A stretch of 64,000 nt of DNA from a virus (Duplodnaviria; Heunggongvirae; Uroviricota; Caudoviricetes), in IMG/VR virus record IMGVR_UViG_3300029641_000003. One strand, written 5' to 3'. The translations under genes and the position numbers were made by a program. Positions within the stretch are counted from its first letter, which is position 1; each line of letters begins with the position of its first letter. Below are positions 1,310-45,138 of the stretch, in pieces. Under the pieces are notes generated by a model. It was not told the DNA's origin, searched no databases, and saw only the letters and a program-made list of their open reading frames with translations.

Positions 1310-1535
1310 AGCAAAATTACTTCTTTTATCGCGTTCGACGGGGTACGAGAAGCTACCAATCAGCAATCACAAACGGGCGGTGATCGGCATGTTTGGTAGG
1401 GTGGTATTCGCATTTAACTATAAACCCACCGCGTCGCGGAACAGACGAGAGAAGGGGTACGCAGTGCGATGAAAAACCGTAAGGCAAAGATGCTGATAGC
1501 AAAGCCCGGGCAGCGTATCCGTATCTCAAATCGGC

Positions 1536-2851: not shown

Positions 2852-3813
2852 CCACTTTAACCGACAAAGAACTGATTAAAGAAATCAAAGAGCGCATAGG
2901 CAGTCTGGACGTGCGAGACAATATTGAGCGCCGTGCTTATGAAATTGCTCTGGCATCGCTGGAGGCAGAGCCTGTTCTGTATCAGTCCTGCACTCGCCCC
3001 ACCTGGAATAGCGGTGTTCCGTGGACGGAATGGAAAGAACGAAGTCGTGAGTGCTACGAAGACGATTTGCGCTTTACAGACACGCCTGACCATGCCGGTT
3101 GGATATACAAATGTCGAAAACTATATACCACTCCGCCAGCGCCGATAGCGTTAGAGGCCATTGAAAACGCAATTGAATACATCCGCAGTATCGCTTTTCA
3201 CATCAATGAAGACGATTACCACGGCAAGCATATTGCGTATTTCATGCGACAAGCATTGGCCTGGCTGGAAGGGCATTCATGCAGCGACGACAGACTGGGT
3301 AAAGCCGAGAATCAAACAGTACACGGCAACCAGGCTGCCGAATCCAATCGCGGTAATGAGTGGACCGGCAATCCTGATATTGATAACGCCATCATCATGC
3401 TCGATCGCATAGATACGCTGGAAAGTTGCGATGATGACCGTATTGAGGCGGTTAAGACTGTTTTGCGTAGACTGGCAGGCAACTCTCCGGTAATTCCGGA
3501 TGGTTTATCCACGGTATGCGCTGAGGCTTATCAGGTTGTAGGAGTTATGGCAGATGCGCTTGGTGTATTCGGTGATGCAGCAGTACAGAAAGTTCTGGAT
3601 AACCTGTCACAGCAAAAACTTGTTCACAGAGATGTGCTGCCGTTCTCGCTTCCGGTAACTCCGGATGGTTGGGTTATGGTTCCTAAACAGGTAACGCCGG
3701 AAATCAGCAACGCGATAAACGTTGTGGGTCAACGCTGTACATGCGGAAATTGCTCTCAGCGGTTGTGGGATTTATTACTCGACGCCACACAGCAAGGAGT
3801 TAACCGTGGCTAA
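2848..3813 (+). CDS. hypothetical protein
   Basis: 321-aa ORF, start overlaps upstream stop; N-terminal region paralogous to 2128..2640. Confidence 0.55.
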   Translation: MTTLTDKELIKEIKERIGSLDVRDNIERRAYEIALASLEAEPVLYQSCTRPTWNSGVPWTEWKERSRECYEDDLRFTDTPDHAGWIYKCRKLYTTPPAPIALEAIENAIEYIRSIAFHINEDDYHGKHIAYFMRQALAWLEGHSCSDDRLGKAENQTVHGNQAAESNRGNEWTGNPDIDNAIIMLDRIDTLESCDDDRIEAVKTVLRRLAGNSPVIPDGLSTVCAEAYQVVGVMADALGVFGDAAVQKVLDNLSQQKLVHRDVLPFSLPVTPDGWVMVPKQVTPEISNAINVVGQRCTCGNCSQRLWDLLLDATQQGVNRG

Positions 3814-3989
3814 CCTGCAACTTATCCTCAAAGGTGAAAAGATTTGAGGATTCGCATCATTAATAACACCGACAAACATCCGGATGATTATTTGGATTGC
3901 TCGTTAGCAGAGCGCGTGGAATTGATATAAGAGAATCTCCGCGCATCGGCAACACACAGCTAAATATGTTCGCAATAAAGGGTAAATCA

Positions 3990-4391
3990 ATGGCTAAATT
4001 TCGGAGAACTATTATTTTTCTGGCAATGTTATCTGCCTGCCATTTATCACATGCATCGGTTATTGTTGCAACCGCCGCAACAACGGCAGCAATTAGCGCC
4101 TCAGCCGCAAGCGAGCAGGAGCAACGCACTGCAATCAATGCATCCGCAAATACTACCACTGTAGCAGTCACGCAAGATAAGCCAAATATAGGCTTTGTTA
4201 CTTGCGGAAAACGGTATGGAGAGACGGTCGGTTCTCTTGGTTGCGCAGTGTGGCATGACGAACGAGCAGAAATTCCGTGGAAATCATGGCCTGGTTACAT
4301 TCTTGGCGAAAAGATACCCACCAGCTATGAAGTAAATGCTATTTCGTTCGATCAATATAACAGAGTCGCAACGGTCTACTTTTCTTATTAA
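3990..4391 (+). CDS. putative lipoprotein
   Basis: ATG at 3990; signal peptide with lipobox-like LSAC (MAKFRRTIIFLAMLSAC). Confidence 0.5.
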   Translation: MAKFRRTIIFLAMLSACHLSHASVIVATAATTAAISASAASEQEQRTAINASANTTTVAVTQDKPNIGFVTCGKRYGETVGSLGCAVWHDERAEIPWKSWPGYILGEKIPTSYEVNAISFDQYNRVATVYFSY

Positions 4392-18428: not shown

Positions 18429-19000
18429 AAAACCTCCCAGTCAGTAGCGATAATATCAACACCAGTTGCAAACCAGTCTGTCTGTGCCTGTAAATCCCCA
18501 TTCATCATTACCAGGCGAGGCATAACCATCACATCACAACCTTCAACAATATCGAATGCCTCTTCCGGCAGGAATTCGACGAGCTTTTCTTTGCTGCCAA
18601 CACTGCCACGGAGCATCGATATATAGCTCCCTTTAGGCCATGATGTTCGCCGGGCATCAAGCCCCTTCATCATCCAGTAAAAGGCCGATGAGAACGGGAT
18701 GTTCTTTTTGGCGATGAGCACGTTATTCGCTTCTGTGTACTTCAGGAACTTAATTAACCTTACCATTGACTCGGATAACGCAATGTACGGCTCATGATTG
18801 ATTGCTGACACGCTTACGCCGTGCAGTCCAACACTTACCACAGTCATATCACCGTTCTGTGCGGTTTCGATGTTGACGCCTTTACGAACTAACGCTGCAT
18901 AAAGCTCCTCGCGCTTTTGCGTCCAGCATTCTCGTCGCCCTATAAAGTCACTCAAAACGAGATCATCTTCTGAATACGCGTTATCGTTCGCCGTTAACAT
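18425..19000 (-). CDS. two-domain protein with C-terminal DUF2829/Tad2-like domain
   Basis: 191 aa; C-terminal ARRTSWPKGSYI ... TDWFATGVDIIATDWEVF resembles the 10121..10783 C-terminus. Confidence 0.55.
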   Translation of the reverse strand: MLTANDNAYSEDDLVLSDFIGRRECWTQKREELYAALVRKGVNIETAQNGDMTVVSVGLHGVSVSAINHEPYIALSESMVRLIKFLKYTEANNVLIAKKNIPFSSAFYWMMKGLDARRTSWPKGSYISMLRGSVGSKEKLVEFLPEEAFDIVEGCDVMVMPRLVMMNGDLQAQTDWFATGVDIIATDWEVF

Positions 19001-19454
19001 AACGTCTCCTTTTTTACACGCGCGACTATCCCCCGGCTGAACCGGTAGTGACGTCGTAACTTCGTATTAATTAAGGGTTACAGCCTGAGCGGCTATATGA
19101 TGAATTGAAAGGAGTTGTGGCGGTGGTGCCTCCACCTGCCAGGTTAGCCACGCCCGGCGACGACACTTATCAGAACGTAGTGAATGAAAATGGCTTCGTC
19201 ACGAGCGCATAGCCGCAATTACCACAACGGAGAAGGCGCTCGTATTAATTAAACACCTTTTCCTGTTGTACGCCGTGCTATTCCGGCTGTCACACCGAAT
19301 CGCCAGGATGGTGAGTCCCTGAGTCCGCTATCCCTCCAACGGTGACTTGCACATTCCGGCTACCTGGTGTGCCCATGCAGTGTTAGTAAGGCACCTAACA
19401 GCTACACCAGACCGCTAACGACGCATGTGCCATACGCCGTGTTACAACCAAATG

Positions 19455-19530
19455 TGGTGGCCCCTACCGGACTTGAACCGGTGACCGTGCGATTATGAGT
19501 CGCCCGCTCTAACCACTGAGCTAAAGGGCC
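19455..19530 (-). tRNA. tRNA with CAU anticodon (Ile2-like, or Met)
   Basis: Reverse complement GGCCCTTTAGCTCAGTGGTTAGAGCGGGCGACTCATAATCGCACGGTCACCGGTTCAAGTCCGGTAGGGGCCACCA folds as cloverleaf; resembles recalled E. coli ileX. Confidence 0.8.
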
Positions 19531-19539
19531 AGATTACTG

Positions 19540-19668
19540 TTAATTACGCTTACGCTTTTTGCCAGAACCGCGTAAGGCTTTTGCCGCTTGCTCTACCCCG
19601 TATGCAACCACCAGCAGAAACAATAATGTCCACTCCGGGTTTTTATCGGCAAACGCCCAAAAATTCAT
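19540..19668 (-). CDS. small protein (42 aa) with hydrophobic core and basic tail
   Basis: Read by eye: MNFWAFADKNPEWTLLFLLVVAYGVEQAAKALRGSGKKRKRN; ATG overlaps stop of the 77-aa gene upstream. Confidence 0.3.
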   Translation of the reverse strand: MNFWAFADKNPEWTLLFLLVVAYGVEQAAKALRGSGKKRKRN

Positions 19669-19901
19669 CACTTACAGCCACCTTGCATTTCCTCGGATAA
19701 TTCATTGACTTTAGTGCTCAATAAGTAATCAAAGTAAAGATAAAACACAAAAGTAACGATAGTGCTTAAAGTGTCTGAAATTGCGTATTTCAGCTCAGGA
19801 AGCATGACAAAGCAGACAAATAGCGGAAGAAATAACTGCACTATGCACAGACTCTCCTTCCACAACCATCTATATCTGAAGTCTGACAACAAAAACTCCA
19901 T
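19668..19901 (-). CDS. small membrane protein
   Basis: 77 aa with two hydrophobic helices. Confidence 0.4.
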   Translation of the reverse strand: MEFLLSDFRYRWLWKESLCIVQLFLPLFVCFVMLPELKYAISDTLSTIVTFVFYLYFDYLLSTKVNELSEEMQGGCK

Positions 19902-20026
19902 TGCTTGAAACTTTATTAGATTGCGGTGCCTGGTGCCTCCAGGTGACGTTAACCAGTTAACAATTAACGCCGGGATGTTTGACTTAACTATTAAGGAAAA
20001 TTGTTTTAACTGTTCCGCGTGCGCTT

Positions 20027-20059
20027 AGCCGCATTCACCGCAATGGTAAGAGCATTTGG
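20027..20059. repeat. tRNA-cluster repeat, copy B
   Basis: AGCCGCATTCACCGCAATGGTAAGAGCATTTGG; related copies near 19211, 20383 and inverted near 20465. Confidence 0.5.
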
Positions 20060-20149
20060 CTGGCTGGGCGGCGATGACGCCTGTACGCATTTGGTGATCC
20101 GGTTCTGCTTCCGGCATTCGCTTAATTAGCCAAATACTCTTAACGTTGC

Positions 20150-20236
20150 GCTGGCGGAGAGTAATGGAATCGAACCATCATCGCTTGCGCAATGGGACGG
20201 TTTTCAAGACCGCTTGAGCACCATGCTCCCTACTCT
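20150..20236 (-). tRNA. tRNA-Ser (UGA anticodon), long variable arm
   Basis: Acceptor stem GGAGAGT/ACTCTCC plus G-CCA; anticodon arm CGGTCTTGAAAACCG as in recalled E. coli tRNA-Ser; D-arm atypical. Confidence 0.6.
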
Positions 20237-20382
20237 CCAGTGATTGTGGTGGTCGGTACTGATCTCCGACTGCGCCTCTTTTTTTCATAGCCCATAAGGC
20301 CGGTCAGTGCGCTTGATGACTGAGGCATCGATATTTACTACGCCGCCTCGTTGCCATAGGGCGGACTTGCGCGCCAGCAACG

Positions 20383-20486
20383 CGCATTCACCACAACGGA
20401 AAGAGCATTTATGGCTCGCATCGCGGGAAGCGGGAAAAAACCCACGGTAGAGAGTCGAACTCTACAAATGCTCTTACCTGTTGTGT
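20383..20486. repeat. inverted pair of the tRNA-cluster repeat (copies C and D)
   Basis: CACCACAACGGAAAGAGCATTT ... AAATGCTCTTACCTGTTGTG flank a GTAGAGAGTCGAACTCTAC hairpin 3' of tRNA-Thr. Confidence 0.45.
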
Positions 20487-20562
20487 TGGTGCCGGTTAAC
20501 GGACTCGAACCGCTGACATCCTGCTTACAAGGCAGGCGCTCTACCAACTGAGCTAAACCGGC
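20487..20562 (-). tRNA. tRNA-Thr (UGU)
   Basis: Reverse complement GCCGGTTTAGCTCAGTTGGTAGAGCGCCTGCCTTGTAAGCAGGATGTCAGCGGTTCGAGTCCGTTAACCGGCACCA. Confidence 0.85.
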
Positions 20563-20564
20563 AT

Positions 20565-20639
20565 TGGCGATGGTGGATGGATTCGAACCACCGACCAGTT
20601 GGTTAACAGCCAACTGCTCTACCACTGAGCTACACCATC
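20565..20639 (-). tRNA. tRNA-Asn (GUU)
   Basis: Reverse complement ...GTTGGCTGTTAACCAAC...GGTTCGAATCC...CACCATCGCCA; abuts tRNA-Thr. Confidence 0.8.
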
Positions 20640-21950
20640 ACTTGCCGGGTACGTCTCCGGCGAGGGCTTCCACCTCCGTATGCTTTTCGGCGCACCGCGC
20701 CCTGGCTGCAATTCGGTAACAGGGGATGCACAACCCTGGCTTCCAGCGTGATTAGCGCCTTCAGCATGACGGGATATACCCGTTACAAGACATTATTCCA
20801 GAAAGCCATTAACCAATGGCTGTTACGCGGAAAGGACGTAACAGGTAAGGGCGCTGACCAGAAAGACCTGACCCTTCTCATTCATCTGGTTAATCACACC
20901 AGCGCCCTTGCCTGTTATGCCTCCCCGTTCCCTAATACACAGACGGGGACACTCTGCGGTCGATTTTTTGACGGGGGACGACTCATACCCCGTGGTGTCA
21001 GGCTTCTTAGGCCGCTACCATCATCAGATCATCGTTTGCATTTACTTTAATGGTCGGGTTCTAAACCGCCGCAAAGTCGCTAACCATGACGAAAACACTG
21101 AAAAAACACCCACCCGAAGGTGGGCAAATATCCCACTCGCGGTATTGCCACTTAGGCGTATGGTCAACCTGGCAACTCGGTGTCCTCAACGGGGAAGGAA
21201 TAACCCCGCCATACTTACCGCCGCGCCTGTCGCGGTTATCGCTACGTATCAACATAAAAGCCGACTGCCTGAGCAAGATTCACTTTCAAAGGCCCGCAGA
21301 AAGGAATCCATAGTCGGCTTTTATCTTGAAGCGGCTCTCTCTCCGCCCGTCACCGCTCTGTCTCGGTTGTCACGTTTGCCACGCCAGCCGTAACGAGGTT
21401 TAAAGTCTTTGCACGTTTCCATCACTCGACTGCCGTCTGTGGCTGTTCGTTGCAGCGGGGGTGCCTCCCCCTGGGGATATCCCCGGCCTTACCCCATTCT
21501 TTCAAGACACAATGCAAGGCCACATCCGCATAGGTGCATTACCGCAACGTTAAGGAGACTCAGAGTCAGCAAAATAAGAGGAAAACCCAACTCTGCGCCT
21601 CCTTAACGTTGAGGATGTGCACTGATGATGACCCGATGCAGCCTGGCCCACTTAACATACTCACTGCCAGATCATCATCAATGAACACCATAAAAAGACC
21701 TTCCGTGGCTCAAGTCACTGTCGTTTACTCCGTAAAATGCTCTCGCTGAAACCACTTTACGCACTAAACCTGCCGGGCATGTATTTGCACGGTGCCGGAG
21801 CTTTCCCTTACCTTAAAATTTACTTTCTAACACTTAAATTTGTTTGATGCTGGTGGGGAAAGACAATGAAGTGACTATCAAACCCGCAAGCGACATGGGA
21901 AGCTCCCCACCAGCACGAAAAATTCTATGTTAAGTTAACCCCATAATCAA
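20640..21950 (-). ncRNA. ORF-poor, structure-rich region; candidate non-coding RNA(s)
   Basis: 1.3 kb without a convincing ORF; several long perfect stems (21256..21322, 21457..21471, 21544..21610). Confidence 0.3.
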
Positions 21951-44715: not shown

Positions 44716-45138
44716 TTATGCAGGCATCTCAGGCCATGAGATATCTGCATCAACAGAAGTGTCAACTCTATTAAGAAGAACTCTATACCTCTTTAACTTT
44801 GTCAACATTTCTATTTCCTCATCAGTGGCAATATCCATATCAACAGCATCCTGAAGCGTTGATATTTTTATGCTCACATCATTGATAAGACTACTTTTGG
44901 TGTTTTCAGCAATGCTGACTCTATCCTCTAAGCTCATAGGTTGTGGGTCAGATAACATTGGATAACCATCGCCATTTGCAATTATTATTTTCCCATTGCC
45001 ATACCCTGATAACAATTCATCATATAAGTCATCAGGTATATGTACAGTATCGGACGGCCATGAACCGTTTTTATCGTAATCTTCTTTTAGTCTGTCGTCG
45101 TAGAAACCACCAGTCTCTTTGCTGTAATACTTTGCCAT
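44716..45138 (-). CDS. tail fibre assembly protein (U-like)
   Basis: 140 aa; MAKYYSKETGGFYDD N-terminus typical of Tfa; immediately downstream of tail fibre gene. Confidence 0.75.
   Translation of the reverse strand: MAKYYSKETGGFYDDRLKEDYDKNGSWPSDTVHIPDDLYDELLSGYGNGKIIIANGDGYPMLSDPQPMSLEDRVSIAENTKSSLINDVSIKISTLQDAVDMDIATDEEIEMLTKLKRYRVLLNRVDTSVDADISWPEMPA

Follow-up and report, generated by a model that had tools for sequence, protein, structure and literature searches.

A family of conserved long hairpins among the tRNA genes of a P1/D6-like phage: candidate RNase III processing stems

The DNA considered here, a window of 64,000 nucleotides (nt) from a tailed phage (Caudoviricetes; IMG/VR record IMGVR_UViG_3300029641_000003), carries four tRNA genes on its minus strand, interleaved with copies of a repeat. 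An initial annotation of the sequence described this repeat as a conserved unit of ~30 base pairs (bp) linked to the tRNAs; each copy proves instead to be one strand of a long RNA hairpin. Five such hairpins, with stems of 19-26 bp, are clustered at positions 19219-21617 on the tRNA strand, and none is found elsewhere in the window. Their homologues occur in the late leader of phage lambda and at the dicF locus of the Qin prophage of Escherichia coli K-12. On balance, and by analogy with these relatives, we favour the explanation that the hairpins are RNase III processing stems spaced along a long untranslated transcript, and that they are also recombination joints between the modules that they separate.

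The consensus of the repeat is matched exactly at 20032-20057 and 20385-20410, a few bases away from the positions first given (20027 and 20383), with an inverted copy at 20466-20483; it found no match in 100 shuffles. The copy reported at 19211 is degenerate, lying beyond three mismatches of the consensus, and is 79% identical over 29 nt to the copy at 20018-20046; it nevertheless forms the 3' arm of a genuine family member. A repeat finder revealed that each direct copy has an inverted partner, which had been overlooked. A covariance model, R1, was built from 49 diverse hairpin copies and run unfiltered over the 64 kb. It returned five matches at E<1e-3 (22.7-66.5 bits, E 4e-4 to 8e-16), all within 19219-21617, against 11 bits for the next best, the match of the window copies being partly by construction as they belong to the seed alignment. 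In four of the five copies the model matches best or only on the tRNA strand. The five hairpins are:

21539-21617, minus strand: HP0, CAACGUUAAGGAG...CUCCUUAACGUUG; R1 22.7 bits, E 4e-4, on the minus strand only; fold -40 kcal/mol.
20836-20920, minus strand: HP1, AACAGGCAAGGGCGCUG...CAGCGCCCUUACCUGUU, upstream of tRNA-Asn; inverted repeat arms 20839-20856/20900-20917; R1 35 bits; fold z -5.6; P1 homologue at AF234172 4551-4639.
20388-20489, minus strand: HP2, with repeat copy C (20383-20410) as 3' arm and copy D (20465-20486) as 5' arm; R1 66.5 bits on the minus strand against 36.2 on the plus strand; fold -42 kcal/mol, z -3.7.
20035-20154, minus strand: HP3, with copy B (20030-20057) as 3' arm and 20128-20153 as 5' arm; inverted repeat 20036-20061/20128-20153 of 26 nt, 85% complementary; R1 39.3 bits on the minus strand against 27.2 on the plus strand; fold z -3.0.
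19219-19274, minus strand: HP4, with copy A (about 19211-19236) as 3' arm and a short loop; the copy at 19218-19236 pairs with 19255-19272; R1 44.1 bits, on the minus strand only.

Common to the arms are the sequences CAAC(A)GGNAAGRGC and GCYCTTNCCGTTG; the stem that they form bulges out an A and is interrupted, at a set position, by a single mismatch. HP2 and lambda have U-U there, HP1 has C-A and HP4 has A-C; HP0 pairs throughout, and HP3 shows a small internal loop instead. Fold energies range from -21 to -46 kcal/mol and the window copies comprise 18-32 long-range pairs. Matches of the hairpins to Rfam microRNA families (19-20 bits, far below threshold) reflected the hairpin shape only and were rejected.

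Several lines of evidence bear on the level at which these hairpins act. Among 93 distinct hairpins of the family, with a mean stem of 22.2 pairs, the sense strand folds better in 87, by a mean difference of -6.1 kcal/mol, and the stem holds 2.2 G-U pairs in the sense against 0.65 in the antisense. Pairing holds in 93.7% of the cells of the seed alignment, and double-sided changes affect 7 of the 19 pairs, a count reached by none of 500 shuffles, all slid controls being lower. The orientation of the hairpin is constant, in the same direction as the tRNAs or the late genes. The asymmetry in G-U pairs and fold energy, the covariation and the constant orientation thus point to hairpins that act as RNA on the sense strand rather than to a purely DNA-level element. 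An integron attC-like site, which also combines an inverted repeat, an extrahelical base and a variable centre, was considered and dropped, in the absence of an integron integrase and in view of the sense-strand G-U bias and the structured RNA loops.

The tRNA genes adjoin these stems. Both ARAGORN and the Rfam tRNA models (44.6-75.5 bits) find exactly four, all on the minus strand and where the initial annotation had placed them, each with an encoded CCA:

20565-20639, minus strand: tRNA-Asn (GTT); ARAGORN, Rfam 75.5 bits; 68 positions identical to the tRNA-Asn of P1.
20487-20562, minus strand: tRNA-Thr (TGT); ARAGORN and Rfam; 75/76 identical to the tRNA-Thr of P1.
20152-20238, minus strand: tRNA-Ser (TGA), type II with a long variable arm; ARAGORN, best Rfam clan match 44.6 bits; 86/87 identical to the tRNA-Ser of D6.
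19455-19530, minus strand: tRNA with a CAT anticodon; ARAGORN and Rfam; 75/76 identical to P1 trnI.

The 3' end of tRNA-Thr lies within a few nucleotides of the 5' arm of HP2, and the CCA end of tRNA-Ser continues directly into the 5' arm of HP3. By its identity to trnI, annotated as tRNA-Ile2 in the P1 record, the CAT tRNA is the orthologue of this isoleucine-reading tRNA (after lysidine modification) and not as an elongator tRNA-Met. As a set, the four tRNAs are already known for the P1/D6 phage-plasmids and ordinary for the group: the tRNAs of P1, P7 and D6 are orthologous to those of the window and come in the same order, with a hairpin directly after tRNA-Thr. The window differs in combining a tRNA-Ser, as in D6, with trnI, as in P1, and in lacking tciA and the P1 C1 operator; after tRNA-Thr it also carries another loop and another domain.

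The hairpin is widely distributed. An exact-pattern scan recovered it in at least 120 viral contigs, with 79 distinct cores and loops of 35-65 nt in at least 45 unrelated classes, while R1 finds four copies in P1 and five in D6. A scan of one genome per species located it in Serratia, Pectobacterium, Sodalis, Brenneria, Klebsiella, Citrobacter and other Enterobacterales. Exact 72-nt matches of the lambda type were also met in Pseudomonas, Oceanobacillus, Neobacillus, Shewanella, Bradyrhizobium and other distant taxa; these sit on contigs of ~48.5 kb or on tiny ones, several stating low coverage, and look like lambda DNA contamination of assemblies. No Rfam family covers the lambda-type hairpin. 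Among 129 hairpins of viral contigs, 26 follow a tRNA-Thr at a distance of 3 nt, all from P1-like elements, and in a few lambdoid contigs the first base of a tRNA-Arg or tRNA-Gly is also the last base of the hairpin. In 79 of the 129 the locus has no tRNA; the hairpin is therefore not a tRNA-specific element, but it abuts tRNAs where they are present.

In lambda, the hairpin (GCACAACAGGTAAGAGCATTG-39 nt-CAGTGCTCTTTCCGTTGTGC; J02459 44,783-44,866; R1 69.3 bits) begins 3 nt past the U-run of the tR' terminator. It shares with those of the window the arms GCACAACAGGUAAGAGCAUUG / CAGUGCUCUUUCCGUUGUGC, the bulged A, the U-U mismatch, the sense-strand bias and a location in an untranslated leader. 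It differs in being a single copy, with no tRNA, whereas the window has five copies among tRNAs, with unrelated loops. In lambdoid contigs the hairpin is found likewise in the untranslated late leader, between the holin gene and Q genes belonging to two unrelated Pfam families. Qin contains an R1 match of 33.8 bits, 120 nt upstream of dicF. Approximate matching of the arms in DLP12 and Qin had given noise only, the Qin copy emerging later with the covariance model; R1 finds no copy in DLP12 or in the Q-stx2 region of Sakai Sp5.

The loops of these hairpins are themselves structured. That of HP2 folds into a four-way junction whose first arm bears a T-loop-like UUCGACU, which bears out the initial description of a stem formed by copies C and D around a T-arm-like hairpin. 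Ten homologues of this hairpin, from P1-like plasmids, Kluyvera, Erwinia dacicola and the Enterobacter phage CobraSix, have the junction in common; across them the T-loop-like arm stays paired through changes at three of its six pairs, and the second arm covaries too. The T-run noted near tRNA-Thr is indeed present; it forms the loop of the second, inner arm of the junction and is replaced by other sequence in the CobraSix, Erwinia and Kluyvera homologues, and is therefore not a terminator tail.

The loop of HP3 holds an element of a different kind:

20063-20127, minus strand: 65-nt element, 98.5% identical to lambda ~44,866-44,930.

In lambda this element follows the late-leader hairpin, and in rV5-like phages an element ~88% identical stands, there too, after a tRNA-Ser. 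It is far better conserved than its flanks, and is enclosed in the window, in lambda and in the rV5-like phages by an inverted repeat of differing sequence. In the rV5-like phage FV3, a 97-nt Rfam tRNA match (35.5 bits; 1385-1481, minus strand) lies between the annotated tRNA-Thr and the 65-nt element and, like a tRNA-Ser at ~1585-1669, is absent from the annotation of the record, so that the rV5-like tRNA cluster seems under-annotated.

The arms also seem to act at the DNA level. Over 18900-21000 the best megablast match of the window is phage D6 (93% identity, 73% covered), followed by P7, RCS47, P1 and SJ46, with 88-91% identity to P1 and P7; the region is matched by 1049 plasmids of ~90-94 kb, mostly non-mobilizable, from E. 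coli, Klebsiella and Salmonella. Judged by these relatives, the window belongs to a P1/D6-like phage-plasmid. Homology to both D6 and P1 stops exactly at 20466, where the 5' arm that follows tRNA-Thr has its inner edge, and the loop, the 3' arm and the domain that follows (20269-20465) are replaced relative to both. The stem after tRNA-Thr is kept in P1/D6 and in the window around unrelated loops, that of P1/D6 being of tRNA-like appearance. With a homology break at this position and unrelated loops within a kept stem, the arms therefore behave as recombination joints between modules.

The 3' arm is followed, in nearly all members of the family, by the CATTCACC part of the repeat, which reads GGUGAAUG in RNA and also begins a helix closing domains related to the prophage small RNA (sRNA) STnc100. 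If the repeat strand is called b (...AUGCUCUUNCCGUUGYGGUGAAUG), it can pair with the upstream arm a (CAAC(A)GGNAAGRGCAU...) or, through its last 9 nt, with a downstream strand c (CACCRCAAY). A partner for GUUGYGGUG, formed by the last bases of the arm and five more, was sought 45-205 nt downstream. This search was uninformative when G-U pairs were allowed (46 of 99 controls perfect); rerun with Watson-Crick pairs only, it found one in 68/98 cases, against 6/98 in the upstream control. Compensating changes (GUG/CAC, CUG/CAG, AGG/CUU) affect the b-c helix outside the part shared with the hairpin. The repeat is therefore a strand with two alternative, mutually exclusive partners; the minimum free energy (MFE) folds select the full hairpin in two units, and a shortened hairpin with a closed domain in the other two. 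Four domains of the window are closed by b-c helices:

21449-21548, minus strand: D0; GUUGCGG (21542-21548) can pair with CUGCAAC (21449-21455).
20243-20397, minus strand: D2; GUUGUGGUG (20389-20397) pairs with CACCACAAU (20243-20251) in the MFE of the whole unit.
19868-20063, minus strand: D3, STnc100-like; AUUGCGGUG (20036-20044) pairs with CACCGCAAU (19920-19928) in the MFE.
19114-19228, minus strand: D4; GUUGUGG (19222-19228) can pair with CCACAAC (19114-19120), the MFE of the unit preferring the full HP4 stem.

D2 ends 4 nt ahead of the 5' end of tRNA-Ser. D3 scores 43.7 bits (E 3e-7) with Rfam RF02076, below the gathering score of 47, and presents two structural features of STnc100, the closing helix and a CCNGG-AGGCA-CCNGG hairpin beside its 3' strand, here CCUGG-AGGCA-CCAGG (19929-19943). 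D0, D2 and D4 have no Rfam match at E<5. D4 contains GGUGG-AGGCA-CCACC (19122-19136) and D0 GGGGG-AGGCA-CCCCC (21457-21471): in the three AGGCA-loop hairpins, 5-bp stems that are wholly different yet complementary stand beside the 3' closing strand. The STnc100 consensus of Rfam and the dicF-dicB spacer contain this hairpin too, and its shape recalls a protein-binding hairpin of the boxB type. The domains of the window resemble the STnc100/PasD prophage sRNAs in their closing helix (GYRUGGUG/CACCAYRC, then GAAUSC), in the NNNNN-AGGCA-NNNNN hairpin next to the 3' closing strand and in their position in untranslated spacers of phage operons. They differ in the score of D3 and in the terminal terminator of the Rfam model, which is unconvincing in the window.

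The dicB operon of Qin (ydfABC-dicF-dicB) provides the link to RNase III. It shares with the window a family hairpin upstream of dicF, the stretch just 5' of dicF and a D3-like spacer, and it differs in having no tRNAs, while the window has no DicF (no RF00039 match). In K-12, the spacer between dicF and dicB forms an STnc100-like domain (34.4 bits) that in parts has almost the same sequence as D3 and is closed by a helix of ~20-25 bp (z -5.4); in the window, the b strand pairs the upstream arm in a long helix instead of extending the closing helix. According to PMC5069750, which summarises Faubladier et al. 1990, both RNase E and RNase III take part in the processing of DicF, and it is RNase III that generates the 3' end of the 72-nt form from the full-length transcript. 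This end (53+19 nt) falls within the helix that closes the dicF-dicB spacer domain. For lambda, a paper by Daniels et al. (1988; Virology 167:568; cited in PMC7547250) reports in its title RNase III sites in the late transcript. The record J02459 annotates no RNase III site in the lambda late leader. As the leader has no other long helix, these sites presumably lie in the hairpin at 44,783-44,866.

The window also contains a counterpart of the dicF region:

21140-21235, minus strand: stretch homologous to the sequence just 5' of Qin dicF, followed by a terminator-like hairpin and U-run at 21107-21126.

At the equivalent place P1 annotates a 'dicF-like region', and 21107-21235 is a candidate sRNA in the position of DicF. 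Part of the transcription would end at the terminator-like hairpin, ahead of the tRNAs. Upstream of the dicF-like stretch, 21249-21329 (minus strand) forms an 18-bp hairpin, 94% complementary (UCAAGAUAAAAGCCGACU / AGUCGGCUUUUAUGUUGA), in the position of the family hairpin of Qin; R1 gives it no score, and it may be a sixth, diverged member of the family.

The array is flanked upstream by pmgS and downstream by a Tad2-like open reading frame (ORF), lpa and pacA, genes that share its minus-strand orientation. The ~2.8 kb separating pmgS from the Tad2-like ORF are almost wholly untranslated and, on the same strand, comprise the four tRNAs and several structured RNA domains; the D6 record annotates no coding sequence over the array region. 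P1 has, at the equivalent place, the long leader of the ban operon, which is under C1 control (Pban, 'dicF-like region', tRNA-Asn, tRNA-Thr, tciABC, trnI, ban). The P1 C1 operator itself has no match within three mismatches anywhere in the window. A possible start for the non-coding array is:

21922-21950, minus strand: sigma-70-like promoter candidate TTGATT-17-TAGAAT just after pmgS, a consensus match only, the count of such matches being not above chance.

The sole plausible coding sequences within the array are two small hydrophobic ORFs of 77 aa and 43 aa (amino acids) with a 4-nt overlap (19668-19901 and 19540-19671, together 19540-19901, minus strand), which hold the position of P1 tciB/tciC and have no match in Pfam or NCBIfam. 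Past the array, the first ORF (18425-19000, minus strand, 191 aa) encodes a domain that Pfam identifies as Tad2-like (Thoeris anti-defence 2; E 5e-10); a homologue of this ORF on plasmids carries the PGAP name 'MW1434 family type I TA system toxin'. The array may thus adjoin an anti-defence gene, which is the sole hint bearing on the idea, raised in the initial annotation, that phage tRNA sets can counter anticodon nucleases. In P1, the record (AF234172) leaves the hairpins unlisted and annotates over them, on the strand opposite to the tRNAs, the ORFs plp and upl (3612-4227, equivalent to ~19900-20490 of the window). These exactly cover three hairpin-model matches (3612-3698, 3873-3974 and 4106-4200), plp also overlapping tRNA-Thr, and may not be real genes.

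The long helices formed by a and b would be RNase III processing sites on a polycistronic non-coding transcript. RNase III would cut at the tRNA ends and at the edges of the domains, leaving RNase P, RNase E and exonucleases to complete the tRNAs, and the domains and the tops of the hairpins would come free as small RNAs. The arms would also serve as DNA-level joints, where loops, domains and tRNA genes are swapped, because they are nearly identical in many temperate phages. Classical RNase III substrates are double-stranded RNAs of about two helical turns (~20 bp or more), a size that the mean stem of the family attains. The stems of rRNA operons, of the T7 early mRNA and of the T4 tRNA cluster are likewise long helices, of about two turns, that flank functional RNAs in polycistronic, largely untranslated transcripts, and T7 R1.1 further resembles the hairpins in its internal mismatches. 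There is no sequence relationship with these stems, and those of rRNA are not known to be conserved in sequence across unrelated genomes, whereas the hairpin arms are nearly invariant. The dicF precedent and the title of Daniels et al. make RNase III the best-supported actor, although by analogy. Of the functions put forward in the initial annotation, processing is thus the one that the arms abutting tRNA ends, the homology to the hairpin after lambda tR' and the link with a module reportedly cut in the K-12 dicB operon support, so that its interpretation was partly right.

Several points weigh against this explanation. For the five hairpins of the window, RNase III cleavage is proposed by analogy, and the cut documented in Qin lies in a closing helix of the b-c type, not in an a-b hairpin. 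In units 2 and 3 the MFE prefers the shortened hairpin with a b-c helix, which leaves a hairpin helix of ~13-16 bp. The sequence of the stem is conserved well beyond the known needs of RNase III, hinting at another, sequence-specific partner. The covariation is visible only at free positions and in the divergent window copies, as the search pattern fixed most stem positions; it is consequently understated or biased, with much of it carried by those window copies. Finally, a strong terminator-like site, at 21107-21126, precedes the tRNAs with no promoter found in between, and co-transcription from a single promoter would therefore need read-through.

Other explanations account for part of the same observations. 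The hairpins might be passive, uncut stems that protect neighbouring tRNAs and domains from misfolding and block 3'-5' exonucleases or RNase E scanning, in the manner of REP-type stabilisers. Their folds are very stable, they lie directly at tRNA borders and the conserved bulged A and U-U mismatch could avoid double-strand cleavage. Yet an uncut stem right after the CCA would impede 3' tRNA trimming, a near-invariant sequence would not be needed and the homologous module family has reported RNase III processing, all of which makes this role unlikely. A DNA-only element, whether a palindromic linker or a selfish repeat that spreads or promotes recombination with no RNA role, would suit the breakpoints against D6 and P1 exactly at an arm, the unrelated loops between identical arms, even in close relatives, and the several copies per genome. 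We hold it improbable, since G-U pairs and fold energy strongly favour the transcribed strand, on which the model scores 20-30 bits higher, since the hairpins are always oriented alike relative to tRNAs and late genes and since the loop structures covary, which argues for selection at the RNA level. Least credible are the suggestions that the repeats act as intrinsic terminators or descend from duplicated tRNA genes that have decayed to fragments. A terminator scan does flag GUAGAGUUCGACUCUCUAC followed by CGUGGGUUUU at 20447-20465, a hairpin that has the T-loop-like UUCGACU, and other loops of the family hold GGTTCGAATCC-like arms. Terminator-like matches in the region are at chance (4 found, 3.6 expected), however, and the U-run lies 6 nt from the stem, in the loop of the next hairpin of the consensus fold, and is replaced in homologues. 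As for the tRNA origin, which stays unproven despite the covarying T-loop-like motif, the Rfam tRNA models give no match at E<5 over 20383-20486, and the arms have no tRNA similarity in a family for which most loci (79/129) are without any tRNA.

The 3' arm could also act as a boxA-like signal which loads NusB/NusE and makes the polymerase Rho-resistant along the untranslated array, the 5' arm and the c strand hiding or exposing it. UGCUCUUU matches the rrn boxA UGCUCUUUAACAA, and GCUCUUAC is identical over 8 nt to the nutR boxA of lambda CGCUCUUAC. GCYCUU[U/A] is kept in the 3' arms of all five window copies and of nearly all database copies. The 3' arms read GCUCUUUC or GCUCUUAC, which corresponds to 7-8 of 8-9 positions of the boxA core GCUCUU(U)A, with no statistics beyond the conservation of the stem; their free mismatch position is mostly U or A, and the two mutually exclusive partners proposed for the b strand would suit such a switch. 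CRISPR arrays, which are long and untranslated, use boxA against Rho (PMC7665894). Against a boxA role, the bases are paired in every predicted fold, and the 5' arm, being transcribed first, would sequester them immediately. NusB/E binds single-stranded boxA. The ninth base, an A in boxA, is C in the window, such an 8-mer is expected by our own estimate ~8 times per 64 kb by chance and in lambda Q already supplies antitermination, so that we give this role little credence. A more speculative reading, to which we lend limited weight, would join several of these elements in a dedicated processing scaffold, beyond a generic RNase III site: a near-invariant stem shaped like a pri-miRNA, by which temperate phages of Enterobacterales would express and exchange hypervariable small-RNA loops, combined with an a/b/c switch. 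The 35-65-nt loops of at least 45 unrelated classes, some with four-way junctions and T-loop-like arms, would then constitute a repertoire, the boxA-like b strand of the three-strand switch would couple release to antitermination or tRNA maturation, and in P1-like plasmids the tRNAs, the RNAs and the adjacent Tad2-like gene would form a single island.

We favour RNase III processing at the hairpins, together with module exchange at their arms, and its consequences extend beyond the window. What annotation leaves blank over some 2.8 kb, or in P1 assigns to two doubtful ORFs, plp and upl, is an orderly succession of tRNAs, STnc100-like domains and copies of a single conserved hairpin, which is common to the lambda late leader, the dicF locus and the window and has been without an Rfam family. 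A family model would improve the annotation of more than 1000 phage-plasmids of E. coli, Klebsiella and Salmonella and of Stx-type prophages. If the hairpins are RNase III sites, they would account for the release of phage tRNAs and prophage small RNAs out of long transcripts that are not translated. Ready-made joints would, in the same way, explain the free movement of tRNA and sRNA modules among lambdoid, P1-like and rV5-like phages.

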